From the NCBI GenBank assembly GCA_027310185.1, contig DAIDBH010000014.1, positions 128,001 to 192,000 on the forward strand: 64,000 nucleotides of DNA, read 5' to 3'. Position numbers and translations under genes: made by a program. Below, in pieces: positions 1,687 through 48,947 of the stretch (position 1 is the stretch's first letter; each line of letters begins with the position of its first letter). The notes beneath the pieces are model-generated. The model searched no databases and had not been told where the DNA came from. It saw only the letters and a list, made by a program, of their open reading frames with translations. The stretch is from Thermoplasmatales archaeon. GTDB taxonomy: Archaea > Thermoplasmatota > Thermoplasmata > Thermoplasmatales > Thermoplasmataceae.

Positions 1687-3399
1687 ATGTCAAAGTCTTC
1701 GATTAGAAAGCAGGCAATAATTGTTACTTTGCCTGCTCTCATCTATTTTTTTATTTTTGTTCTGTATCCTATTTTTGATAATGTAATAATTTCCTTTGAG
1801 TCTTTCAATTTTGCAGAAGTGGCAACTTTTGTTGGGATTAAGAATTATATAATATTGATTGAAACCCCCCACATGAACCAGCTGGTTGAGAATACAATAA
1901 TTTATACTCTGGCAGTTCCTGTGATAGATGTTTTGCTTGCCATTCCTCTGGCAACGCTGATTAAAAGACTGAATAAGCCATATTTGATTCCACTGATCCT
2001 GCTTCCGTCATTCATTCCGCAGGTGACTTCAGCCAACATATGGCTACTGATGATGAACCCATCCTATGGTATCCCTTACTATATCGGACATCAAAATATC
2101 TTCCTTTCAGCCTGGAGTGTTGTTCTTGTTGATGTTTGGTCCAGCCTTCCACTGGCAACGCTTATAATTTATTCGGGGCTCAAGTCAGTTCCTCCTTCCA
2201 TAGAAGAGGCAACGTCAATGGATGGAATCAGGGGTACAAGGAAACTGATAAACATAGAACTACCATACATCAAGTCAAACATACTTTCTGCCTTTGTTCT
2301 GATGCTTATGTATGGCTCCTTCACTTTCGATCCCATTTATGTGCTCAATACATATTCAAGTCCCTTTGGTATAAACGATCTATCATACTTTGCATACCAG
2401 AATTACTATGGACAGGATATAGGACTCGCTGCTGTTATTATAATAATAGTTTCCGTGCTTTCCTCGCTATTTACAGTAGCATTTGTTTATTTCACCCTGA
2501 GAAAATCCAAGGTAAAAACTTCGAGAGTATGGAAATCTGGCATGAAATACCTGCCAAACATGGAAATTCCAAAAATCCTTGTTTATATCGGGATGGCACT
2601 TTTTATCATATTCCTTATTGGACCTATAGTATTCCTTGGTCTTGACTCCATAAAGCCGTTGTCTGAGATAATAAGTATACCACCAATGTTTTATCCAAAA
2701 CACCTCACCCTATCAAATTATAGAATTGCCATAAATACCGGTATACCTTATTTTACTTCCAGCATTATTGCCTCACTAGTCGCCTCGGCCATAGTTGTAC
2801 TCATAGGTCTTCCTGCAGCATACGTAGCTGCAAGATATAAGCTAGGTGGACTGAAATTCATAGGATTTGTCCTTTTTATTTATTCACTTCCAACAATAAT
2901 TTTCCTGATACCAATGCATAATATTATAGCATCACTTGGACAGCTGAATGAGATAAGTGGACTGATCATTTCCTATCCAGTTTTCATACTGCCGCTGTCC
3001 ATCTGGATGATGTATAACTTTTACCAAAATTTCCCTAAACATGTTGAGGAAGCTGCCAACATGGATGGCATGAATCTCTTCCGAACTCTGAGAAAGATAA
3101 TTGTGCCCTTGAGTTATGATGGGATGTTTGTTACATTCCTCTATGCCTTCATACTGGCATGGGGAGCACTTATATTTCCACTGGCCCTCACATACTCCCC
3201 ATTTAATCTGAGTATCTATTACCCAAATGGCGCACAGACAATTACGATACTTATAGGGGGAGCAATAGGCCACGAAGCAGTCGGATATGGAATGCTTGCA
3301 GCTTCAAGTATATTGAGCATTATTCCCTCTATTATACTGGTTATAATTGTCAGGAACAGAGTGGATAAATTGTGGAGAACCGGAGGTAATGTTAATTGA
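1687..3399 (+). CDS. Sugar ABC transporter permease, fused MalF/MalG-type double domain
   Basis: Two EAA loops (IEEATSMDG and VEEAANMDG) and about 12 TM segments. Confidence 0.9.
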   Translation: MSKSSIRKQAIIVTLPALIYFFIFVLYPIFDNVIISFESFNFAEVATFVGIKNYIILIETPHMNQLVENTIIYTLAVPVIDVLLAIPLATLIKRLNKPYLIPLILLPSFIPQVTSANIWLLMMNPSYGIPYYIGHQNIFLSAWSVVLVDVWSSLPLATLIIYSGLKSVPPSIEEATSMDGIRGTRKLINIELPYIKSNILSAFVLMLMYGSFTFDPIYVLNTYSSPFGINDLSYFAYQNYYGQDIGLAAVIIIIVSVLSSLFTVAFVYFTLRKSKVKTSRVWKSGMKYLPNMEIPKILVYIGMALFIIFLIGPIVFLGLDSIKPLSEIISIPPMFYPKHLTLSNYRIAINTGIPYFTSSIIASLVASAIVVLIGLPAAYVAARYKLGGLKFIGFVLFIYSLPTIIFLIPMHNIIASLGQLNEISGLIISYPVFILPLSIWMMYNFYQNFPKHVEEAANMDGMNLFRTLRKIIVPLSYDGMFVTFLYAFILAWGALIFPLALTYSPFNLSIYYPNGAQTITILIGGAIGHEAVGYGMLAASSILSIIPSIILVIIVRNRVDKLWRTGGNVN

Positions 3400-4400
3400 G
3401 CGAAATAACGATTGAGAACCTGAAAAAGACGTTTGGAAATTTTACTGCCCTTGATGTTCCAGAGCTTACATTCAATGAGAAGAGTTATCTTACCATACTA
3501 GGTCCGTCAGGATCAGGCAAGACAACTCTTCTCAGGATAATTGCAGGCCTGGAAACCGCTGATAGGGGAACGATGATAGTGGAAGGAAAGGATATATTGA
3601 ACAGTCCACCCTGGAAGAGAAGTATAGGTCTCGTATTCCAGAATTACGCCCTTTATCCCCACCTCAGCGTTTACCAGAATATAGCCACGCCACTCATACA
3701 GCTGAAGATGGATCAGGGAGAAATAGAAAGGAAAATTTCCGAGATCTCAAACATTATGGGGCTTGACGACAAACTGACCAAGTTGCCCAGAGAACTGAGT
3801 GGAGGTCAACAACAGAGGGTTGCTCTAGCGAGAGCAGTCATCAAGAGACCGAATATTCTTCTTCTGGATGAGCCACTTTCCAATCTGGATGCGAAGGTAA
3901 GGGTGGATCTGAGAGATTATCTAAAGAGAATCCAGAGAGAATTTGAACTTACTGCCATACATGTAACACATGATCAGGTCGAGGGAATGGCACTCGGAGA
4001 TAGCATGGTCATAATTCATAAAGGGAAGATTGAACAGACTGGGAATCCAGAGGAGCTTTACAGGCACCCAAAAACAAGGTTTGTTTCTGGCTTTGTAGGA
4101 GAGATCAATATCATTGATGGCAAGACAGCATCCATGCTTACAGGAATGAATATTGACACGGACACGGGAATTAGGTATGAGGATATATTGCCTGACCTTG
4201 CAGGTCCATTTACAGGTAAGGTGGTAGAGAACCAGTTCATGGGATCTAGAAGGATGATAACCTTTCTGTATAACAATGTAAGAATGAGGTGTTTTACTGA
4301 GAGAGATCATCTCAGCAAGCTTCAGGGTGAGATCAAGTTCAGGGTCGCAGGTGAACACCTGATTATCTTCAAGGAACTTGAAGAGGATGAGGAAAATTAA
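3396..4400 (+). CDS. Sugar ABC transporter ATP-binding protein (MalK-like)
   Basis: Walker A GPSGSGKT, signature LSGGQQQRVALARA, LLLDEPLSNLD, HVTHDQ. Confidence 0.95.
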   Translation: MSEITIENLKKTFGNFTALDVPELTFNEKSYLTILGPSGSGKTTLLRIIAGLETADRGTMIVEGKDILNSPPWKRSIGLVFQNYALYPHLSVYQNIATPLIQLKMDQGEIERKISEISNIMGLDDKLTKLPRELSGGQQQRVALARAVIKRPNILLLDEPLSNLDAKVRVDLRDYLKRIQREFELTAIHVTHDQVEGMALGDSMVIIHKGKIEQTGNPEELYRHPKTRFVSGFVGEINIIDGKTASMLTGMNIDTDTGIRYEDILPDLAGPFTGKVVENQFMGSRRMITFLYNNVRMRCFTERDHLSKLQGEIKFRVAGEHLIIFKELEEDEEN

Positions 4401-5059
4401 CCTCTCACGAAATTTTCTATGAACGGGATGGCTTCATCCAGCTTCCTGACTGTGAGATCGGCTCTTGAACTCCTCTGGTAATTCTGGATGAAAACTGTTT
4501 TGAAACCCATTTCCATTGATGGCAGTATATCATTCCTGTAATTATCTCCAATACTCAATACGTCTTCTGGCAATGTATCTTCATCCCTAAGCAGATCATT
4601 CACTATGTTTTTGAACGAATCCGGTTTTTTTGCAGAACAAACTATTCTGTAAAATAGATTTTTTATCCCGAAGTTTTCAAGAAGAGGAATCGCATATTTC
4701 TCTGGAGTATTGGTCAGGAGGATATGCCTTACGTCCCTGAAGTTGAGGATCCTAACGGCAGTGCTCTGCAGGTTAACTGCGATCTTCCCATCATTCATCT
4801 TCTCCCTTGTTCTTGCAAAGCACATGTCCATCTCTTCCTTAGTTACATATCCGCTAGCAAGATTTGCTATAATCGCCCATCCATCATCTCCAATTTCATT
4901 CTTTTTATCGTTGATCACCTGCATGGATTTATCTGCAAACGATTCGTTATCCTTCATCAGGCTTCCAATGCATTTCGCATATTCCCTGTATGACTCTTCT
5001 GAATGATAGATAGTCCCATCAAAGTCCCAGATTATGACTTTTGCAGACTTACTAGACAT
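4397..5059 (-). CDS. HAD-superfamily hydrolase
   Basis: DFDGT motif I, LTN, KKP, IGDNYRNDI. Confidence 0.9.
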   Translation of the reverse strand: MSSKSAKVIIWDFDGTIYHSEESYREYAKCIGSLMKDNESFADKSMQVINDKKNEIGDDGWAIIANLASGYVTKEEMDMCFARTREKMNDGKIAVNLQSTAVRILNFRDVRHILLTNTPEKYAIPLLENFGIKNLFYRIVCSAKKPDSFKNIVNDLLRDEDTLPEDVLSIGDNYRNDILPSMEMGFKTVFIQNYQRSSRADLTVRKLDEAIPFIENFVRG

Positions 5060-5522
5060 AATTTACCATCAACTCTTCCAGTTTTTCCCTTATGTCCATT
5101 GGTATCTCCTTTTTCTTCAGGTTTTCGTCAATCCACACAACAACGGTCTTTCCTTCTGAAAATATTCTTTTGTAATCTTCAGAAATAATCTTGTGACTGA
5201 ATACGCAACTCGTCCTCCCGATCTGTGAGATCCATGTCAGCACTACCGGATCATCCTCAAAATGAATAGGTGCTTTAAAGTCTATCTCAGCGTGATTCAC
5301 AACAAAATTTACATCCCTGGAAATGAAACCTCCCAAATACTGCATGAAGAAATTTGTTCTTCCAAGTTCATAGTAAGTCAGGAATACTGCATTGTTCACG
5401 TGACCCAATGCATCTAAATCGCCGTATCTCATCTGTATCCTGGTGGATTGAATATTCTCCATAATCCTGAATTTTCTTAAGCAATATAAGGTAAATGTTC
5501 GAATTGGCTCACTTAAAAACAT
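5052..5522 (-). CDS. Acyl-CoA thioesterase (4HBT/FcbC hot-dog family); true start probably further downstream
   Basis: RYGDLDALGHVNNAVFLTYYELGR motif. Confidence 0.9.
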   Translation of the reverse strand: MFLSEPIRTFTLYCLRKFRIMENIQSTRIQMRYGDLDALGHVNNAVFLTYYELGRTNFFMQYLGGFISRDVNFVVNHAEIDFKAPIHFEDDPVVLTWISQIGRTSCVFSHKIISEDYKRIFSEGKTVVVWIDENLKKKEIPMDIREKLEELMVNYV

Positions 5523-5643
5523 GCGTACTAATATGGAATAGAAGTGATATTCCTTAAATACCTAACATTTTACTAATAAACATTTTATACAGTAGTGTAA
5601 TCATTCAATAAATAAAATGGATGGAATTTATAAATATTAAGAA

Positions 5644-6159
5644 ATGAACTCAGATGAATTTCAGAGTGTGATGCTTAATTTGGTAACGGGTGAGAAAATG
5701 AAGGATGATAATACTCAGGTTGATGATTATACAAGAATATGGAGAAGCCTTGGAACAATATACAAGCTTATGTACAATGGAATGGACAAGAAATTTGATG
5801 AGGTTGGAAGCAATGTTTTAGAATACAGGATATTAAGGATCCTTGTTGAAACCGGGAAGAAAACCATGGCAAACCTTGCTGATCTGAACTTTGTAACTCA
5901 GGCATGGATTACAGGAATGACTGACAAGATGGAAGAGAAGGGATATGTAAAAAGAGTGAGGTCATCTGATGATAGGAGAGTTATATATGTGGAACTCACT
6001 GAGAAAGGGAAGGAATTCATTGAGAAGATGAGGAAGGTACACGATGATTTCCTGAAGAGTCTTCTTTCCTTTATACCTCCGGAAGATACATCCAAGATGG
6101 CAGATATTATAGAGACCTTCTCTGATGAATTGGGAAAGAGAGTCATCACTTCTTTATAA
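5644..6159 (+). CDS. MarR-family transcriptional regulator
   Basis: wHTH with RVRSSDDRRVIYVELTEKG. Confidence 0.9.
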   Translation: MNSDEFQSVMLNLVTGEKMKDDNTQVDDYTRIWRSLGTIYKLMYNGMDKKFDEVGSNVLEYRILRILVETGKKTMANLADLNFVTQAWITGMTDKMEEKGYVKRVRSSDDRRVIYVELTEKGKEFIEKMRKVHDDFLKSLLSFIPPEDTSKMADIIETFSDELGKRVITSL

Positions 6160-9410: not shown

Positions 9411-11654
9411 ATGTCAGGTTCTAATACAGAAGGAATCACCTTAAGGGTTGCAGAGGCTAATTCTACGGATCCTGGAATGTCCAGAGTAAGACTGGACGAG
9501 GACTCAAGATTCCAGTTAAATGTGGAAATTGGGGATGTAGTAGAGATTGAAAAGTCCAAGAGGACTGTCGGAAGAGTGTTCAGAGCAAGACCTGAAGATG
9601 AAAACAAGATGATTGTGAGGATAGACAGTGTAATGAGAAATAACTGTGGTGCCTCAATCGGTGATAAGGTAAAAGTCAAAAAAGTAAAGACGGATATAGC
9701 TACAAGAGTTGTTCTTGCACCAATTATAAGAAAGGAACAGAGACTGAAATTTGGTGAAGGAATCGATGATTTTGTTCAGAGAGCCCTCATAAGAAGGCCA
9801 ATGATAGAACAGGATAATATAAGTGTTCCAGGCCTTACACTTGCTGGACATTCTGGCCTGTTATTCAAGGTTGTTAAGACAGTCCCTCCAAAGGTTCCAA
9901 TAGAAATTGGGGAAACTACCAAGATTGAAATAAGAGAGGAACCTGCGTCTGAAGTACTTGAGGATGTTTCAAGAATAAGTTATGAAGATATTGGTGGATT
10001 ATCAGACCAGCTTGGGAAAGTCAGAGAAATAATAGAATTACCACTCAAGCATCCTGAGCTATTTGAAAGGCTCGGCATAAGACCTCCGAAAGGAGTGCTG
10101 CTGTTCGGACCTCCTGGAACAGGAAAGACTTTGATTGCAAGGGCAGTTGCAAATGAATCAGGGGCGAATTTCTTCTCAATAAATGGACCGGAGATAATGA
10201 GCAAATACTACGGGCAGAGTGAACAGAAGCTTCGTGAAATATTTACAAATGCAGAGGAGAAGGAACCTTCCATAATCTTCATAGATGAAATCGACTCCAT
10301 AGCGCCAAAGAGGGAAGAGGTACAGGGTGAGGTGGAAAGAAGGGTTGTTGCCCAGTTGCTGACGCTTATGGATGGCCTGAAGGAAAGGGGACATGTAATC
10401 GTGATAGGAGCAACCAACAGGATAGATGCTGTTGATCCTGCCCTAAGGAGACCTGGAAGATTTGACAGGGAGATAAATATCGGTGTTCCGGACAAGAAGG
10501 GAAGAAAGGAGATCCTCACAATTCACTCGAGGGCAATGCCTCTGAACATGGATGAGGATTCAAAATCAAAATTCCTGGATGAAATTGCAGACATGACCTA
10601 CGGCTTTGTTGGAGCTGATCTTGCGGCACTGGCAAGAGAATCTGCCATGAATGCCCTCAGGAGATATCTTCCAGATATAGATCTTGATAAGCCAATACCA
10701 ACTGATATACTGGAAAGAATGGCGGTAGTTGAGGATGACTTCAGGGAAGCATTGAAACTCATAGAACCCAGCAGTCTTAGGGAAGTTATGGCCGAAATTC
10801 CAGATATTCACTGGGATGATATTGGCGGAATGGAAGATGTGAAGAGAGAATTGAGGGAAAGTGTTGAGCTTCCACTTCTAAAACCGGAAGTTTTCAAGAA
10901 ACTTGGTATCAGGGCACCAAAGGGCTTCCTGCTTTACGGACCACCTGGGGTTGGAAAGACCCTGCTTGCAAAGGCTGTGGCCAACGAGAGTAATGCAAAC
11001 TTCATTTCAGTCAAGGGACCTGAAGTGCTAAGCAAGTGGGTAGGAGAAAGTGAAAAAGCGGTCAGGGAGATATTCAAGAAGGCAAAACAGGTTGCACCCT
11101 CAATTGTTTTTCTTGACGAAATCGATTCCATTGCCCCTAGAAGAGGGGGTGGAGGAGATTCAGGAGTTACAGAAAGAATCGTCAATCAGCTGCTCACCTC
11201 CATGGATGGTGTTGAGGTACTGCAGGGAGTGGTTGTGATTGGCGCAACGAACAGGCCGGATATTCTGGACAGTGCACTCATAAGGGCAGGCAGGTTTGAT
11301 AAGATGATATACATACCTCCACCTGACAAGGAGGCAAGATTGAAGATCCTTCTTGTGCATACAAGGAATATGCCCCTAGATAAGGATATCAATCTACAGA
11401 AGATCGCAGAAGCAACTGAAGGGTATGTTGGTGCTGATCTTGAGAATCTCTGCCGTGAAGCGGGAATGATGGCATACAGGAACGATCCTGAGGCATCTCT
11501 GGTTTCAAACAGTGATTTCACGAAGGCAATGAAGGTCATAAAGCCCTCAGTGGACCAGGAAGTGATCAATTTCTATGAGAACCTGGCTAAGAATATTGGA
11601 AAGAGTGTCAAGGAAAGAAGAAAACAGGTAGAGGAATCCGGACTCTACAATTAA
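9411..11654 (+). CDS. vat: VAT / Cdc48-family AAA+ ATPase
   Basis: N-domain plus two AAA modules ([16 protein letters not shown]), C-terminal GLYN; ATG at 9411 preferred over GTG at 9390. Confidence 0.95.
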
Positions 11655-11668
11655 ATTTTTAAGGGTTA

Positions 11669-11941
11669 ATGAATTATATTGCTATGACACTGAAAAGGTT
11701 GAAAAAGGTCTCAGGAAAATCCATAGCGACCAGTGATGGCAGGATAGTTGGAAGAATCGTTGATTTTATAACAGATGAGGGAACAGGAAGCATAATGGAA
11801 ATCCTCGCCGTTCCTGCACCCGGTAAGATTGAGAATCTGAAAAAGGACATGGATGGTAGATACATAATCCCATATTCCATTGTCAGGCCAGGACAGGATT
11901 TTCTTGTTGTGGATGCTGAAAAGCTTAGAAGATTAAAGTGA
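11669..11941 (+). CDS. PRC-barrel domain protein
   Basis: [17 protein letters not shown]...IPYSIV..G.DFLVV. Confidence 0.85.
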
Positions 11942-13171
11942 AGATGCAGTCGGGGCATACCTGAGGATCCCGGCAACTCCACCGAATGCCTTCTTGAGTG
12001 TACTGCCCTCATCACTTTCATCCCCGATTATTTCCACTGTTGCACCAGACTCTTCAGCCATTTTATATAGTTTTGTTATGTAGTCCTCCTCGTGATCCAT
12101 TTCCATGGGACCTCCACATTTAGGACATGTGTTATCTTCCGGTCTCTGCATGAATTCCTGTTCATAGCCACAGTTTGGACATTTGTAGAAGTACTTGGTC
12201 TTCCTTACACCATCAGATAGTAGGAGGAGATCAAGAGCCTTCCTCTCTAGTGCACTCTGGATCTGTGCTTCACCGTATACTGCCAGACCCTCATCACCCT
12301 TCCTCAGTTCCTTCATGAATCGGTTTACCAGGTCCTTTTCCCTTGTAATCTGAAGATCCTTCATGGATTCTGATGCTTTTTCCACCAGTTCCCTCAACCC
12401 TGATTCATCAGTGTATCCAACATCAAATAGATCAACCACCTTCCTTGTTATATCCTTGAACATATATTCGTTTTCAAAGAAGAAGTTCTTTGTTGAACCG
12501 GGTCCACCAATAAAAATACCTTTCATATCCCTGATTATGGGCATGAAAGTATTGTTGACTATGTCCCCAATCTTCTTGAAGTATTCATTGGCTGCTATCT
12601 CAATTAATCTTTCATATCGTCGCGATGACTGTCCACCCTGATGATGCTTGCTTGGAACGAGAGATTGCTCATTAGTTACGACCTGGATGTTGGTACCATT
12701 TAGGAATCCTATGGTTGCCTCCTTCCTGTCTATCACAATCAGTCCATATACCTCCTTGGCCTTCAACTGTGCCATTAGAGGCTCAGTATAGAACTGGGAA
12801 TCGCACTTATAGATGAATGTCTGTATGGGTTCTGGAGGTTCCACTATCTGGCTGTACATTTCGGTCTGGTCACCTCGCTTCTGAACATGTCCAACGAAGA
12901 ATACAAGACCGGTTTCAGGCGGCTGCTTGAAATATTTTAACTTTGACATTATGGACTCGATTGCACCCAGAACATTCTTTCTTGTTGATTTTGACTTAAT
13001 ATTGCTTGAAGTTGAGTATTCCTCCCTTAGATACTGTACTACATCATATATCATCTTGTCTGGTGGGATGTATAATGATATTAGCTCTGTTCCCCGTCCC
13101 TTTAGACCATCGAGTTCCTCCAGTGCTTTTTTGAATTCATATCTCCTTAACTGCTTTTCATCCGATGGCAT
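11933..13171 (-). CDS. prf1: Peptide chain release factor aRF1
   Basis: NIKS, YKCD and GGQ motifs; zinc-ribbon insertion CPNC/CPKC. Confidence 0.97.
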
Positions 13172-43656: not shown

Positions 43657-43734
43657 GCGATTCAGAGCCTCATATCAGTGAAGCATATAAGCCTGATTTC
43701 AAAGTTAGAACGTAGTAATAAGTTAATTCTGTTT

Positions 43735-43749
43735 CGTGACTTTACATCT
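43735..43749 (+). repeat. Terminal inverted repeat CGTGACTTTACATCT (transposase-distal end, IRR)
   Basis: Exact reverse complement of 47807-47821; preceded by CTGTTT. Confidence 0.9.
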
Positions 43750-43806
43750 ATTTTAATTTTGTAGACTTCCCAATATGATTTTCAGGCTGTTTTTCTAAAC
43801 CACTAT

Positions 43807-43819
43807 TGTGGGTGCACTA
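43807..43819 (+). repeat. Subterminal repeat TGTGGGTGCACTA
   Basis: Inverted copies at 47680-47692 (exact) and 47740-47750 (TGTGGGTACAC). Confidence 0.8.
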
Positions 43820-44233
43820 CTATTTCAATACCTGATCAAGTTTCATGATCATTCCAATCTTCCTTCCCGTTTCTGACTTGAAATCCAATCTCTCGCTCAC
43901 CTTTTTTCCCCTGGCAGCATATACAACCATTATATCTTTCATAACATCAACTGTTGATGGAAGAGATACGCTCTTCTCTGTCCTGTGCATTTCATTATAT
44001 ATCAGTGAAAGGAAAAGATAGGCAAGAAGAGACATAAACATGTGAACCCTAATCTTCTGTGGAGTTCTGTGATATACTGGAAATGCAATGCCCATGCTGT
44101 TTATTGTGCGGAAGCAGTGTTCCACCCTGTTTCTTTTCTTGTAGAGATCAATTATCCCAGCAGGATCCATATCCATGATGTTTGTGAATATGGCATTCTT
44201 TCCCATCATGGATAAACGTTCGAAGAGATCCAA
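43820..44233 (-). pseudogene. IS1634-family transposase, C-terminal fragment
   Basis: GKNAIFTN...IIDLYKKRNRVEHCFR...PVYHRTPQKIRVHMFMSLLAYL matches the Y-x2-R-x3-E-x2-F-R and P.YH....I..H motifs; the N-terminal majority is missing. Confidence 0.88.
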
Positions 44234-44515
44234 AAAGCCTATTTCAGGATGAAGACTGATAATCCATCACTTTACAAATTCCTGGAACGAGCGACGGACG
44301 ACCTCAAGCAAAACCCTTTCTGTGGTATTCAGATGCCAAAACGGCAAATACCGAAAACCTACGTGAGCAAATATGAGGTCAACAACCTGTGGAAATACAA
44401 CTTACCCAACGCCTGAAGGTTAGTTTATTCAGTTGCCGGGAGCGAAGTGGAAATAATTGCAATTCTGCTGGAGTGGTTTCCTCACAAGGAATATGAGAAG
44501 AGATTCAATTATTGA
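44219..44515 (+). pseudogene. RelE/ParE-like toxin pseudogene (5'-truncated, internal TGA at 44414-44416)
   Basis: Manual translation FEEIQKAYFRMKTDNPSLYKFLERATDDLKQNPFCGIQMPKRQIPKTYVSKYEVNNLWKYNLPNA*RLVYSVAGSEVEIIAILLEWFPHKEYEKRFNY*. Confidence 0.75.
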
Positions 44516-44753
44516 AATTTGATGACGATTCTCTGGATTAACCACAGTCTAAATTGATTTTACAAAAATAAACGTGATATACTTTGAGATTGTTTTTCCA
44601 AAGGCGACGCTAACGTTTCCGAGGTACAGATAGTACCCACTTAATTGATTAAGGGAATAATTAACTTTAGGGTTCAGGTCTATCCTTCTTATGTGAAAAT
44701 GATGTTTCATTCACTAAATTAGCACTTTGATTGACACTGATTAACCTCACTTT

Positions 44754-45060
44754 TTACAACTTCCAGGATGTGAGTGAAAGTCCCAACGCAATAATTACGC
44801 TGACTCCCGAAACTAATGGCAGCATTGATAGGGAAAAGTAGCCGAATAGACTTCCGCCCAAAACGATTCCCAGAGCTATACCTATGTACAACATTGAGTT
44901 GTTAATAGCAAGGGCAGTTTGATGAGAATTTTTCGGCGAAAAATAGACCACCCTTCGTAACTGGGAAGGCATAAAGCCCAAAAGCAATCCATAGTGGAAG
45001 GGGTACACTTTCTATGAGCAAATACACGCCAAGTAGAATACCATAAACCGAAAACACGGG
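44754..45060 (-). pseudogene. MFS transporter C-terminal fragment (apparently frameshifted)
   Basis: ALAINNSMLYIGIALGIVLGG is an MFS TM11-like motif; a hydrophobic segment continues upstream in another frame. Confidence 0.65.
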
Positions 45061-45061
45061 A

Positions 45062-45451
45062 TCACGAACGCAATTGGCGTGTCATAGAATCTTTGCTTCT
45101 CATTAAAATGAGATATTTCATGTGGGTAAACGAAGCTAATAGAATCAGAGGAAAATAGGAAGCAATAAAAACCCATTGAGCTTGCTCTACTGAAGGCACG
45201 TAAACCGTCTCCAAGAGTACATGTCTGAAAATATAGAGCTCAAGCACGGTGACTATTGTAGCTACAACCATAATTGAAAGAGTCATTTTTTCGTAAAACG
45301 CTGCCCTAATAGGAACCGAAGTACGAAAATATCTGAAAGCGAGGCAAAAAGCCGCTCCTCCCTCGATTGCGAGAAGTAAAATCCAAAAATAAAGAAGTTG
45401 GATAATAATTGTCACCTTCTTAACTAAACCAAACCCAGTTTCCGCTACCAT
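45062..45451 (-). CDS. Small multi-TM membrane protein; putative immunity protein
   Basis: 3 hydrophobic helices; overlaps or abuts the stop of the 376-aa gene, with AAGGTGA RBS. Confidence 0.65.
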   Translation of the reverse strand: MVAETGFGLVKKVTIIIQLLYFWILLLAIEGGAAFCLAFRYFRTSVPIRAAFYEKMTLSIMVVATIVTVLELYIFRHVLLETVYVPSVEQAQWVFIASYFPLILLASFTHMKYLILMRSKDSMTRQLRS

Positions 45452-46550
45452 AATCGCTTACAAACTGATTATTAACGCTGGAAACCTCAGCACTGAAAGT
45501 GACTCCCATGATACCCCCATAGGCTACAAATGGTACGTTATACCAAAAAGTATAAGAGTTTCCATTGGAGTTCAAACCATATAGACCAACAGATGATGCA
45601 AACGTACCTACAAGTGTAATCCATGGATAAAAGTAATCATTAACGAAATCCAGATGGATATAAGAAAAGCCAGTGCTTTCATAGTAGCTAAGCATTGTTG
45701 AAGCCTCATACAATAATCCCACGCCTACAATTATCAGAGCAGCTCCAATTGCTTGTGCCAAGACCGGAACCGGTATGAAAAGTGCGACCAGCCCTGCAGC
45801 AGCCAATCCATATCCAGCGTATGTAGTTGTACTTTCCCAATTATTGAAAAACGATTGAGCAGCAGAACCTGTAAATTCCACATTGTAGTTATCATTTTCA
45901 CCATACGTTAGAGACCATCCCCCAAGGTACCACGGGGCGTGATAAACATAATAATTAATGTTGACCCATACCCACGGGTCTATCACGCTACCAGTAGGCG
46001 TAGTAACGTTCACTGCCCATACTTCATACTGGGTTCCATTAAAGTTCGCTTCGTATAACACGCTATGGTCATGAAATGTTCCCTGAGAAGTGACAGTAGA
46101 AGTATTTATTTCGTTAATCGGTGTTCCAGAATAAACAACCTGCTCCTTTAACTGCAAGGATTGCTGGGCACTTTGAGCATTTGAATAGTTATTTTGTTCC
46201 TCACTGGTAAGAATCTGAAGATACATTTCCGCCGTCTGATTTTGACTTACAAATTCTTGAAACAATGCGATTGATGCATTCGTGTTTTGAATGCCTTGTG
46301 CTTGTCCATTAGACTGCAACCAATTTAAAAACAGAGTGGCTATCGAATTTTCTGTTCCACTCTGATTTTGTGTAGTAAATGTGGCAGCTTCAAAGTTAGG
46401 CGAATATCCGTTAACAACATGAGAATTGGAAGTTTGAACCAAATCTGAATTGCTTGTAACAGGAGAGAACCACAAAGCAGAAAGAGCAACCACTACAATC
46501 AGAGAAATAGATATTATAAGTTTTCCTCGGAGGCCATTTTTTAAGTTCAT
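45420..46550 (-). CDS. Secreted protein with an internal hydrophobic hairpin; putative archaeocin precursor
   Basis: Signal/anchor at residues 1-30, hydrophobic Gly/Ala hairpin at residues ~245-281, one Lys and no Arg after residue 10. Confidence 0.75.
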   Translation of the reverse strand: MNLKNGLRGKLIISISLIVVVALSALWFSPVTSNSDLVQTSNSHVVNGYSPNFEAATFTTQNQSGTENSIATLFLNWLQSNGQAQGIQNTNASIALFQEFVSQNQTAEMYLQILTSEEQNNYSNAQSAQQSLQLKEQVVYSGTPINEINTSTVTSQGTFHDHSVLYEANFNGTQYEVWAVNVTTPTGSVIDPWVWVNINYYVYHAPWYLGGWSLTYGENDNYNVEFTGSAAQSFFNNWESTTTYAGYGLAAAGLVALFIPVPVLAQAIGAALIIVGVGLLYEASTMLSYYESTGFSYIHLDFVNDYFYPWITLVGTFASSVGLYGLNSNGNSYTFWYNVPFVAYGGIMGVTFSAEVSSVNNQFVSDYGSGNWVWFS

Positions 46551-46568
46551 AAATTATTATCACAATAC

Positions 46569-46592
46569 AACGTATATAGTTATGGATACGTT
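46569..46592. promoter_or_regulatory. Palindrome AACGTAT-N10-ATACGTT overlapping the TATA box of the 376-aa gene
   Basis: 7-bp perfect inverted repeat; TATATA at 46573-46578, 23-28 nt before ATG 46550. Confidence 0.55.
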
Positions 46593-46780
46593 ATGAAGCG
46601 TTCCAGCCTGGGAGAGTTCGGTGTCATACAATGCAACACCAAAAAATAATAGATATTTATTTCGTTTATGGCGTTTTCCTTTTCTTTTTGCCTACTTTTT
46701 CGGGAAAAATTATGGTCGAAGAAATCCGCTAATCTGCATTAATCAAAAATGCGGGTCTCTGAGAATCCCCTTTCTTGGTG

Positions 46781-46801
46781 AAACTTCTTTCTAAGAAGTT
46801 T
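46781..46801 (-). terminator. Hairpin AAACTTCTT-TCT-AAGAAGTTT downstream of the 130-aa gene
   Basis: 9-bp perfect inverted repeat about 17 nt past the stop codon; could instead be a protein-binding site. Confidence 0.4.
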
Positions 46802-46817
46802 GAACAAGAAATAGAAA

Positions 46818-47210
46818 TTAACTATTATGAGAAGGATGATTTAAATATGCTAACCTAACTGCGATTAAAACTACTATAATCAGGAACGCTTGAAGTATCA
46901 CAACTGCAACTATATCTGTGAAGCCTCTTAGATAAAGATATAGTTCTATCTCTGATAACATTATAAAGAGTAAAGTTAGTAACGAGGTGATATTAACAAA
47001 ACTTGAGAAACCATATCCATGTTTTTTACCACCGAAATAACCCAGACTATTCATAAACAAAAGCAAGAAAAGCCCAATCAGTAAAAAGAATAGAACAATG
47101 CTTTCCAAATTTAAGTTCTTAAATATGGTGAATAATACCGATAGTAATGAAATACTTGCGAGAGCCTCTGATATTGTGTAAAATTTATTAAAGAATTTAG
47201 CATTTTTCAA
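46818..47210 (-). CDS. Four-TM membrane protein; putative immunity protein
   Basis: 4 hydrophobic helices; TTG start 10 nt after the upstream stop, with GGTGG RBS. Confidence 0.7.
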   Translation of the reverse strand: MKNAKFFNKFYTISEALASISLLSVLFTIFKNLNLESIVLFFLLIGLFLLLFMNSLGYFGGKKHGYGFSSFVNITSLLTLLFIMLSEIELYLYLRGFTDIVAVVILQAFLIIVVLIAVRLAYLNHPSHNS

Positions 47211-47220
47211 GTAAGACCAC

Positions 47221-47691
47221 CTAACAATCCTGCGTTAGTAGAATGGCCTCTGCTATTGGCAGAATATTGATAATCGCATACAGAGCAATACACCCAAATA
47301 TGTCTCCAGAAAAACAAGCGACTGCAGCAGCAACAAGACCTATGCCTGTGACGCCTAATGATGCAATTTCTGCGAGGCAAGCAGCCAAGTTTCCATCAAT
47401 AAGGTATACCCCTGTCATAACTACTTTTTGTTTCAGAATGTGGTCTGGTGTAATTTTTATAAAAGAAGTCAACGATTGCGCTGTAAGTAGATAATAGATG
47501 CCAAGGGTTGTTAATGTTTTATTTCCACTTTCTAGATATTTCATGGATAGTGAATATATACCGGACTGTATGCTTAGAAGCTGCCCATACAAGTCGGAAC
47601 TGAAATTGGTGATGAGTACGTCCCCTAAATGTAAATCTCTCCCTTGATTTGGTTGAAAGGCAATTGCCATCACAGATAATAGTGCACCCAC
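47221..47691 (-). CDS. Protein with a hydrophobic Cys-containing C-terminal peptide; probably a 5'-truncated precursor fused to the IS end
   Basis: C-terminus NLAACLAEIASLGVTGIGLVAAAVACFSGDIFGCIALYAIINILPIAEAILLTQDC; the start lies within the IS subterminal region. Confidence 0.6.
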   Translation of the reverse strand: MGALLSVMAIAFQPNQGRDLHLGDVLITNFSSDLYGQLLSIQSGIYSLSMKYLESGNKTLTTLGIYYLLTAQSLTSFIKITPDHILKQKVVMTGVYLIDGNLAACLAEIASLGVTGIGLVAAAVACFSGDIFGCIALYAIINILPIAEAILLTQDC

Positions 47692-47806
47692 ACTAACAAA
47701 CTCTTCTCTCTAAATACATTGTGTACATATGAAAATACTGTGTACCCACAGACAGATTTACAGAAAATAGCTAAATTGCGTGTTCCATGATATACTAATA
47801 AAAAGA

Positions 47807-47821
47807 AGATGTAAAGTCACG
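47807..47821 (-). repeat. Terminal inverted repeat AGATGTAAAGTCACG (IRL)
   Basis: Exact reverse complement of 43735-43749; followed by CTGTTT. Confidence 0.9.
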
Positions 47822-47834
47822 CTGTTTTCTTAAA

Positions 47835-48947
47835 TTATCTGATTTCCTTTATGGTATTTGGAGGTAGATATGCACATGATGGATCTGATTCAAGGAAATT
47901 GCCTGTTTCTACATATGCCCTTGCCCTTGATCCTCCACACACTCCATTGAACTCACATGATGCACATTTCCCCATAAGCCGCCCCGTATCACTGATCTCT
48001 TTTAGAACATGGCTCGCCCTTATGATGTCCTTCAGGTTCTGTTCCCTGACATTTCCAATGGACAGGTTGAAGAGGCCTGATACTGAGACTTCACCGGTAG
48101 AAGAAACGAAGAGTGTCCTGATTCTTCTTCTGGGATTGTACTGCTCCGGAATTTCCAGATCGAATATATCAATGCCAGTGAGCTTCCTGGTTTCCACTGC
48201 CAGGGCATTGAGAAGCGTTCCACCTTCCATGTATCCCTTTCGTATGGTCTCGATCTCTATCCTGCTTATTTCAGGCGCCTCTACAGTTCTTATGGAACAG
48301 CCTGCTACCTTCAACATGTACAGGTATTTGAGCACATCTTCCATTTCCTGTGATGAAATTGGTTCCTCTGAAATGCCTCTTCCTGTCTTTATCAGGAAGA
48401 ACAGTTCCCATATGTTTATGCCAAGTTCCCTCAGGGTATGAAAGATGAATGGCAGGTCCATTATATTTCTCTCCATTACAGTGGTATTTATCTGTGTCTT
48501 GATCCCCTCTGATTTGATCAGGCTTGCCAGTTCTACAGTTTTCTTGAACGAACCCCTCCTGTTCCTTATATGGTCGTGAGTTGACGGAATACCATCAAGA
48601 GAAAGAGATATGGAACTTACACCGTATTCCTCCATCTGGAATATCTGATCCACTGTCATAAAGTCTCCAGCTGAGGGGCTCACGGAAAAACTCAATCGCA
48701 GTCTGGATGCATCCAGCAGGATGCTTGCGAAATCCGGATGAAGCAATGGGTTACCACCTGTAAAGATGATGTGTGGTATTCGATCCATTGAGGAAGAGAG
48801 GTTTTCCAGCAATTTCCTGATTTCATAACCTTTCATCTCTTCCGGACTGACTTCAGTGATGGAAGAGGCCCTGCAATGTACACAACTATAATCGCACGCT
48901 TTTGTTAATTCAATAAACAGTAAGTCCGGTGAATACTCTCTTTCCAT
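47835..48947 (-). CDS. Radical SAM/SPASM protein (NirJ/AhbD-like, TIGR04053-like)
   Basis: ELTKACDYSCVHCRA, FTGGNP, SLSLDG...HD, GKCASCEF..VCGGSRARAY, DPSC. Confidence 0.88.
   Translation of the reverse strand: MEREYSPDLLFIELTKACDYSCVHCRASSITEVSPEEMKGYEIRKLLENLSSSMDRIPHIIFTGGNPLLHPDFASILLDASRLRLSFSVSPSAGDFMTVDQIFQMEEYGVSSISLSLDGIPSTHDHIRNRRGSFKKTVELASLIKSEGIKTQINTTVMERNIMDLPFIFHTLRELGINIWELFFLIKTGRGISEEPISSQEMEDVLKYLYMLKVAGCSIRTVEAPEISRIEIETIRKGYMEGGTLLNALAVETRKLTGIDIFDLEIPEQYNPRRRIRTLFVSSTGEVSVSGLFNLSIGNVREQNLKDIIRASHVLKEISDTGRLMGKCASCEFNGVCGGSRARAYVETGNFLESDPSCAYLPPNTIKEIR

Follow-up and report, generated by a model that had tools for sequence, protein, structure and literature searches.

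A candidate polymorphic toxin/immunity family of Thermoplasmatales, represented by a truncated cassette on an IS1634-derived cargo transposon

The question raised by the locus described here is whether two adjacent gene pairs of a Thermoplasmatales archaeon, each encoding a larger protein with a hydrophobic hairpin and a small membrane protein, form a system of antagonism between microorganisms that travels as the cargo of a transposon. This had been proposed in a preliminary description of the DNA, which regarded the two pairs as an archaeocin-immunity cassette. The pairs, here named pair 1 and pair 2, are located in a stretch of 64,000 nt (assembly GCA_027310185.1, contig DAIDBH010000014.1, positions 128,001 to 192,000 of the forward strand), to which we refer as the window and whose coordinates are used throughout. 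Our results support the proposal in part: (i) the family to which pair 1 belongs has an architecture of the toxin/immunity type, (ii) the pair-1 gene in the window itself is truncated, and (iii) pair 2 displays neither a polymorphic nor a toxin signature.

A profile search of a large protein collection returned 63 proteins of the pair-1 family, and the named ones are all annotated as hypothetical and assigned to Ferroplasma, Acidiplasma, Cuniculiplasma, or metagenome-assembled genomes of Thermoplasmatales/Thermoplasmatota. In genome samples that were partial, as were all those used here for family distributions, the pair-1 family was present in 10 of 301 genomes of the phylum (E<=1e-5), nine of which belong to the window's own family while the remaining one, a weaker match, falls outside it, and in 19 of 151 genomes of the order when a single protein was used as the query (E<=0.01). 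Alignments of 12 and 33 members (residues numbered according to L019) reveal three parts: a conserved region of ~250 amino acids (aa); a cysteine, C257, which is invariant or nearly so; and a stretch of 45-60 hydrophobic, Gly/Ala-rich residues, the hairpin segment, which is very divergent in both sequence and length and ends in a nearly invariant second cysteine (C310). Complete relatives of the pair-1 gene in three other genomes encode proteins of 310-315 aa that start with an N-terminal hydrophobic signal/anchor. In the AlphaFold model of a 310-aa relative, the core of the carrier, residues 60-253, is well predicted (predicted local distance difference test, pLDDT, mostly 70-92; predicted template modelling score, pTM, 0.63); the hairpin regions of this model and of the pair-2 model discussed below are of low or mid confidence.

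The first cysteine marks a sharp boundary. Three loci combine a full-length gene with a 5'-truncated copy downstream of it, and the two are 75-88% identical before the cysteine and 17-29% identical after it. The copy in the window, when compared with four full-length relatives, shows the same drop to a lesser degree, from 76-90% before the cysteine to 45-51% after it. To survey the loci, the family hidden Markov model (HMM) was run over 27 of them, and a partner was defined as an open reading frame (ORF) with transmembrane (TM) segments whose start lies at -70 to +150 nt relative to the stop codon. Forty-five hairpin-bearing ORFs were found, 17 of which start near the N-terminus of the family and 28 of which are truncated, and a small ORF with hydrophobic segments follows 41 of these 45. 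A check suggested in the preliminary description, that a small TM gene should always be found downstream, is thus borne out for nearly all members of this family and, as described below, for all 12 intact loci of the pair-2 family. Several loci, e.g. L028, L032, L046, L048, L054 and L059, are arrays of a full-length gene and truncated cassettes, the largest arrays containing four cassettes (L048 and L053), and the spare, promoterless cassettes, each consisting of a hairpin and a partner, are located behind the full-length genes.

Hairpins and partners appear to vary together in the family as a whole; in the window's own clade no such co-variation was seen. Across 41 modules, the identity of hairpins correlated with that of their partners (r = 0.50), a value reached in none of 2000 permutations, and the median partner identity was 0.54 for similar hairpins (18 pairs) versus 0.26 for dissimilar ones (749 pairs). 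In addition, one type of hairpin and partner occupies the terminal position on a full-length gene in one genome and forms a truncated cassette in another.

Judged from sequence, the architecture of the pair-1 family is of the polymorphic toxin/immunity type: a conserved region, a sharp cysteine boundary, a small gene downstream, and orphan cassettes. Polymorphic toxin loci with orphan cassettes are known from bacteria in the form of the CdiA-CT/CdiI, Rhs and LXG/T7SS toxins, the last including glycine-zipper membrane toxins. The pair-1 family resembles these loci in having a conserved exported N-terminal part, a sharp boundary motif, and unrelated C-terminal modules that are each accompanied by a small downstream gene, as well as 5'-truncated spare cassettes that share the sequence preceding the boundary, with the same module being terminal or orphan depending on the genome. 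It differs from them in several respects: there is no relation in sequence or fold, the pair-1 loci showed no neighbouring secretion genes of the T5, T6 or T7 type, the carrier is only ~250 aa long and has a plain signal/anchor, the hosts are wall-less archaea, and the variable module is a cysteine-bracketed hydrophobic hairpin of ~50 aa rather than an enzyme domain. Our preferred reading, to which we give a probability of roughly 0.55, is that the pair-1 family would be a polymorphic toxin that targets membranes, paired with a cognate immunity protein located in the membrane.

Several observations weigh against this reading. Since adjacent genes are co-inherited, the correlation between hairpins and partners is no proof that they match functionally, and the count of orphan cassettes is an upper bound, as the 28 truncated ORFs include pieces at contig edges and pieces generated by frameshifts. 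Among four full-length genes of the window's own clade, the hairpins are conserved rather than diversified, at 79-94% identity versus 68-88% for the carriers, and the 130-aa partner encoded in the window, which is 55-72% identical to partners belonging to the other hairpin type, is no more diverged from them than they are from one another. Neither a processing protease nor a dedicated exporter was noticed next to the pair-1 loci examined, and the variable C-terminal hairpin could be a simple membrane anchor. The pair-2 family, whose loci were aligned, contains no cassette arrays and has a conserved hairpin. Finally, neither sequence nor fold similarity to known toxin or immunity proteins was detected with Pfam, NCBIfam, PDB profiles, Foldseek or VIA-align.

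Some of these points are those expected if both families were ordinary, possibly glycosylated surface proteins, in which the N-terminal segment and the hairpin would act as anchors, the small protein would be an assembly or stabilising subunit, and the truncated cassettes would have arisen by decay or would serve to vary the surface against viruses. We consider this explanation unlikely. Both large proteins indeed combine an N-terminal hydrophobic segment with beta-rich ectodomains, and the lack of detectable toxin homology and the conserved pair-1 hairpin of the window's clade are in line with it. However, the clade named after Ferroplasma and Acidiplasma varies in the membrane-embedded hairpin and not in the exposed domain, which is the opposite of receptor or antigen variation, and discrete hairpin types and the partners that match them move as a unit between full-length genes and truncated cassettes.

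Under the preferred reading, that of a polymorphic membrane toxin, a mechanism can be proposed. A carrier of ~250 aa, ending at the invariant cysteine, would be exported by means of its N-terminal Sec-type signal/anchor. The swappable hairpin of ~50 aa that follows, ending in the second cysteine, may form a disulfide-closed, membrane-inserting peptide or tip, which, when released or presented, could insert into the membranes of neighbouring cells and depolarise them. According to PMC12448462, a paracrystalline S-layer, which the hairpin would otherwise have to pass, is absent from these organisms. In the membrane of the producer, the small downstream protein would neutralise the hairpin, and the truncated cassettes may constitute a reserve that can be recombined into the full-length gene via the shared pre-hairpin sequence. 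Taken as a whole, this would amount to an undescribed polymorphic membrane-toxin system of wall-less acidophilic Thermoplasmatales, with a Sec-anchored carrier, a disulfide-closed hairpin of ~50 aa, polytopic immunity proteins, exchange of cassettes at the cysteine, and IS-derived transposons (IS, insertion sequence) that transfer cassettes, among them stand-alone immunity genes, from strain to strain. We put this complete scenario forward tentatively, its chances being somewhat short of even.

Almost nothing is known about competition among Thermoplasmatales in acid mine drainage communities. If the pair-1 family is indeed a toxin of this polymorphic kind, these archaea would possess a cassette-swapping weapon that does not need a specialised secretion machine, the family would provide tractable natural pairs of hairpin and immunity protein for studying the specificity of membrane peptides at pH ~1, and the window would show a small transposon spreading immunity. 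In any case, the window shows an IS-derived cargo transposon in clean form and contains a two-gene family that is present in RNA libraries. Our literature search found no characterised archaeocin for Thermoplasmatales and nothing that ties Ferroplasma to polymorphic toxins; a 2019 mBio survey of archaeal toxins was outside its reach, so that an earlier description is possible. The genera Ferroplasma, Acidiplasma and Cuniculiplasma are not mentioned in PMC4158269.

The preliminary description had likened the proteins to halocins, sulfolobicins and the pore domains of colicins, and our homology and fold searches do not bear this out. None of the four window proteins reached a cut-off in Pfam, NCBIfam or PHROGs (best PHROGs E-values 0.014 and 0.046), and none of 12 members of the pair-1 family did so in Pfam or NCBIfam, two libraries that include halocin, colicin, pilin, S-layer and sorting-signal models. 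Two scans with patterns derived from the profiles retrieved no relative of either family from viral contigs. S-layer, pilin or viral structural homologues, which had been named among the findings that would speak against an archaeocin, were hence not found in any of these collections either. Profile searches against the PDB gave zero matches and one irrelevant match at E<=1, and with Foldseek nothing in the PDB was matched at E<=0.001 by the models of the 376-aa protein of pair 2 and the 310-aa relative of pair 1. VIA-align returned no match at Z>=5 for the 310-aa model (best 4.9).

Class II and circular bacteriocins are accompanied by small membrane immunity proteins, and colicins have a pore-domain hairpin. 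The pair-1 family shares with these systems a small Gly/Ala-rich hydrophobic helical peptide or hairpin and an adjacent small TM protein. It differs from them in that it has no leader-peptide architecture, no cyclisation genes and no match to Pfam colicin or bacteriocin models, and in that the hairpin is the tail of a protein of ~310 aa. A comparable archaeal system is halocin C8: as described in bioRxiv 10.64898/2026.07.27.741052, its precursor ProC8, of 283 aa, releases a C-terminal hydrophobic, cysteine-rich peptide of 76 aa and contains the immunity function in its N-terminal part. Like ProC8, a pair-1 protein would be an archaeal precursor of about 300 aa whose active part would be short, hydrophobic, cysteine-containing and C-terminal. 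In contrast to ProC8 as presented there, the candidate immunity function of the pair-1 family would be encoded by a separate downstream membrane gene; moreover, no twin-arginine motif was seen in the aligned N-termini and no ABC transporter genes were seen nearby. None of the 12 pair-1 members matched a halocin model at E<=10 in Pfam and NCBIfam, although the Pfam copy may predate PF27906. In the ESM Atlas, the clusters nearest to the 310-aa relative are named "halocin C8 precursor-like" (PF27906), with scores of 0.83-0.85; these are not backed by the HMM scans, and since they lie under the bar of 0.9 set by the tool, the likeness to halocin C8 is a lead only.

In the window, the two pairs are arranged as the preliminary description had reported: all four ORFs are on the minus strand (Table 1), and in each pair a large hairpin protein is followed by a small membrane ORF. 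The start codon of the 130-aa partner is positioned 10 nt past the stop codon of the 156-aa ORF, a spacer of 267 nt separates pair 1 from pair 2, and the 129-aa ORF overlaps the 376-aa ORF by 32 nt; an alternative GTG start of the former, at 45415, is located 4 nt past the stop codon of the latter. Homologues of both large proteins and of the 130-aa partner are known from other places, and every homologue of the 376-aa protein has a neighbouring ORF that corresponds in position to the 129-aa ORF; hence the pairs are real genes and not chance ORFs. The Gly/Ala-rich hydrophobic hairpins that had been noticed are also real. Gly plus Ala make up 29% of the last 52 aa of the 156-aa protein and 30% of residues 240-292 of the 376-aa protein, compared with 14% outside the hairpins of both large proteins and 11-12% in the two small partners, and the density of small-xxx-small motifs in the hairpins (9.6 and 13.2 per 100 aa in the 156-aa and 376-aa proteins, respectively) is 2.5 to 5 times that of the partners (3.8 and 2.3). 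A Kyte-Doolittle scan detected ~4 hydrophobic segments in the 130-aa protein, and two above the threshold plus a weaker third one in the 129-aa protein.

Two other elements of the earlier account have to be modified. The GGTG-type ribosome-binding sites assigned to the small ORFs are clear for the 130-aa ORF, which has AGGTGG 7-12 nt 5' of its start codon, and uncertain for the 129-aa ORF, whose sole GGTG (45416-45413) overlaps the alternative GTG start. The term "tandem" holds in the sense that the pairs are adjacent, not in the sense of duplication: BLASTP found the two large proteins unrelated to each other, and likewise the two small ones, and an hhalign comparison of the two family alignments gave a probability of 2.9%. 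We therefore rejected a tandem duplication of one cassette.

The 156-aa ORF had been listed as the hairpin protein of its pair; the ORF exists, and it corresponds to only the C-terminal half of a gene of ~310 aa. It covers positions 149-301 of the ~305-position family HMM and keeps the core preceding the hairpin and the cysteine-bracketed hairpin, without the signal/anchor. No trace of the missing N-terminal part was found in the window, and the window's own genome contains no full-length pair-1 copy, its single match spanning HMM positions 149-300. The homology of the ORF to the family begins at 47679, where the right-end segment derived from the IS ends (Table 1), which implies that its GTG start and first codons are IS sequence. 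An intact toxin gene in pair 1 was consequently rejected, the large gene being cut at the IS junction and its signal/anchor missing. The 130-aa partner shares 55-72% identity with the small proteins that accompany full-length family members at four other loci, and, as the 156-aa copy has no export signal, it is at most this partner that is functional. Module 1 (47691-46818) thus appears to be a relic whose only plausible activity would be, at most, orphan immunity provided by the 130-aa protein.

The hairpins of the window's clade contain four cysteines, one at the boundary, two internal and one terminal (in the window, 47224-47379, the last 52 codons of the 156-aa ORF), whereas those of the clade named after Ferroplasma and Acidiplasma usually contain two; the four-cysteine hairpins may accordingly form two disulfides rather than one. 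The closest database relative of the 156-aa protein, P0013 (243 aa, named at NCBI as a Cuniculiplasma), matches the window with its residues 90-243 only. At its locus, L018 (G083:C2, 1291-2232), P0013 is the downstream part of a full-length frame broken by one TAA, preceded by a 69-aa ORF with the N-terminal signal part; this interruption means that the copy of G083 is broken as well.

Pair 2 is an intact module. Its 376-aa protein has a signal/anchor at the N-terminus and a beta-rich ectodomain; it also contains an internal Gly/Ala helical hairpin (~228-292), and its C-terminal part is conserved and rich in aromatic residues. The window's own genome contains four copies of the family, three besides that in the window; of the sampled genomes of the class, 7 of 201 encode the protein, and these seven fall within one family. 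A profile search yielded 87 cluster representatives among 1.84 billion proteins; Pfam detected no informative domain in 15 of its longer or weaker matches, with one match to Big_1 under the cut-off. At all 12 intact loci, representing nine distinct modules (a thirteenth locus is a pseudogene and was left out), the large gene is followed by a partner ORF of 110-136 aa with ~3 hydrophobic segments, starting from -56 to +15 nt of the stop codon. The partners evolve faster than the large proteins (identity 0.55 versus 0.79, for example). Among close relatives, the hairpin and both its flanks are conserved, and the N-terminal ectodomain is the most variable part. The AlphaFold model of the 376-aa protein, which is mediocre (pLDDT 63.9, pTM 0.47), starts with a helix at the N-terminus, continues with a helical region and a five-stranded sheet, and then has a long helical hairpin (228-257 and 263-292), which is followed by further strands and a last helix. 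Inspection of the alignment by eye showed no typical K/R-G cleavage motif, and a class III (pilin-type) signal was dropped.

These features bear on two explanations. The first is that the 376-aa and 129-aa proteins would be a pore-forming toxin and its protective partner, with the internal hairpin inserting after a conformational change, as in alpha-pore-forming toxins. The Gly/Ala helical hairpin with its high density of small-xxx-small motifs, the strict linkage to a fast-evolving small TM partner, and the patchy distribution of the family, with one copy on a mobile element, would all suit such a function, and the VIA-align matches to the hairpin include the pore chains AhlB (Z 8.2) and XaxA (Z 7.2). 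However, these matches, like all those obtained for this model (Z up to 8.9), are of hairpin length only and fall within the noise range that the tool states for helices; the model itself is mediocre, the Foldseek search mentioned above was without a match, and the family has neither a polymorphism hot spot nor cassette arrays. The ESM Atlas results for the 376-aa protein were uninformative (scores up to 0.81, template modelling score up to 0.29). We regard a toxin function of pair 2 as doubtful. The second is the surface-protein explanation introduced above, which pair 2 fits in being present at four copies per genome and in having a conserved hairpin. The seven N-x-S/T sequons of the 376-aa protein, all within residues 62-181, would also agree with a glycosylated surface protein, but their number does not exceed the shuffled expectation of 6.5. 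On the basis of its predicted features, module 2 (46550-45062) would be a membrane complex of a surface protein and its partner, which may conceivably be involved in antagonism too.

The claim that the pairs are transposon cargo is confirmed. They are part of an element of 4,087 bp (Table 1), the ends of which are inverted repeats of 29 nt that are 79% complementary and perfect over the outer 15 nt, and which is flanked by a 6-bp target duplication. A sub-terminal pair of inverted repeats is present at 43804-43823 and 47676-47695. In the complete genome G091, from the same genus, the major facilitator superfamily (MFS) gene and the radical S-adenosylmethionine (SAM) gene that border the element in the window (up to 43710 and from 47825, respectively) are 21 bp apart, which constitutes the empty site, and an identical copy of the element occupies the same position in G141. 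Sequences 92-99% identical to the terminal ~93-147 nt of both ends are present at several contig termini of the same-genus genome G083; no second copy of either end was found in the window's own genome. The transposase remnant matches NF033559 (transpos_IS1634) with E 5.4e-22 and 78.5 bits at profile positions 356-466 of 483, a score below the cut-off of 100 bits because the match is partial, and Pfam DDE_Tnp_1 with E 1.2e-07. The terminal repeats, target duplication, empty site and a transposase reduced to 137 aa together indicate that an IS-derived transposon, unable to move alone, has inserted here.

Table 1. Features of the cargo transposon and the two gene pairs in window coordinates
Feature	Coordinates	Strand	Basis or remark
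Pair 1 large-gene remnant, 156 aa	47221..47691	-	GTG start
Pair 1 small partner, 130 aa, ~4 TM, candidate orphan immunity protein	46818..47210	-	TTG start
Pair 2 large protein, 376 aa	45420..46550	-	ATG start
Pair 2 small partner, 129 aa, ~3 TM	45062..45451	-	ORF overlapping the 376-aa gene
IS1634-derived non-autonomous cargo transposon, 4,087 bp	43735..47821	.	Terminal inverted repeats, target duplication, empty site in G091
Left 6-bp target-site duplication CTGTTT	43729..43734	.	Junction sequence read
Right 6-bp target-site duplication CTGTTT	47822..47827	.	Junction sequence read
Left terminal inverted repeat, outer 15 nt CGTGACTTTACATCT matching the right end perfectly	43735..43763	.	Repeat search
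Right terminal inverted repeat	47793..47821	.	Repeat search and ends read
Transposase remnant, C-terminal 137 aa only	43820..44233	-	NCBIfam transpos_IS1634, Pfam DDE_Tnp_1
MFS transporter fragment, 84 aa, inside the element	44754..45008	-	Pfam MFS_1 E 5e-05, profile 101-166 of 347
IS-derived right-end segment	47675..47821	.	Matches multi-copy G083 repeats
TATA-like CTATATA, possible promoter	46573..46579	-	23-29 nt 5' of the 376-aa ATG

The element resembles insertion sequences of the IS1634 family in its DDE transposase remnant, whose partial match is best to the IS1634 model, its terminal inverted repeats, its 6-bp target duplication and the presence of multiple copies of its ends in a related genome. 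It differs from them in that its transposase gene lacks ~1 kb and that its ends enclose 3.4 kb of foreign genes and fragments, the interior being a patchwork of the MFS fragment, pair 2 and pair 1. The cargo may either have travelled with the ends of the element or have recombined into a resident IS.

The location of both modules on a transposon amid decayed genes, together with the position of other pair-2 copies beside candidate transposase ORFs, would also be expected if the modules were not weapons against neighbours and worked in cis as addiction cassettes of a membrane toxin and its antidote, stabilising the mobile DNA that carries them. This is highly improbable in our opinion. The full-length large proteins have export-type N-termini, the pair-1 family also occurs in non-mobile settings, e.g. 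between translation-factor genes in L060, and addiction modules are not known to come with arrays of spare cassettes.

In the case of pair 2, RNA-library evidence covers both genes. Contigs of 1.53-1.54 kb from three metatranscriptome runs of two studies span the 376-aa and 129-aa genes together, running from 44957, 45003 and 45008 to 46496, 46532 and 46532, respectively, with their upper ends near the ATG of the 376-aa gene. One run also contains a contig of 532 nt (47138-47669) over the 156-aa ORF. It should be noted that these contigs document presence in RNA libraries and neither a single transcript nor an expression level, and that parts of the region, e.g. 46540-47127, had no cover in the three runs. 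The position of the CTATATA motif (Table 1) and the ends of the contigs would fit a possible leaderless mRNA for the 376-aa protein.

Some further observations concern the surroundings of these genes and elements. At L060 (G046:C1:1617000-1632000), a full-length pair-1-type gene and its 75-aa partner (10914-12122) are flanked by ORFs that look, on inspection by eye, like those of elongation factor 2 and of ribosomal protein S10/elongation factor 1-alpha, and a pair-2-type module is located ~6 kb from the pair-1-type gene, beside a candidate transposase ORF of 321 aa. A decayed copy of the transposase fragment of the window element is present in another genome of the same genus (L041, G083:C3:17000-24500, ~1700-5700). 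There, the two genes enclosed by this fragment and by two copies of the same end repeat of ~80-180 nt are different ones, namely an ORF of 347 aa that has a hydrophobic segment at its N-terminus and a downstream ORF of 288 aa that overlaps it; the IS family of the window element may therefore repeatedly carry such two-gene cargo. Directly to the right of the transposon in the window, a radical SAM/SPASM protein is encoded at 47835-48947 on the minus strand (best match TIGR04053, E 3.4e-101, 339 bits, cut-off 395), and this gene is not cargo, because it is a conserved neighbour in G091. Lastly, between the transposase remnant and the MFS fragment, the plus strand contains an ORF of 55 aa (44249-44416) that has no family match at E<=1 in Pfam or NCBIfam and is overlapped by an RNA-library contig of 205 nt at 44389-44593.

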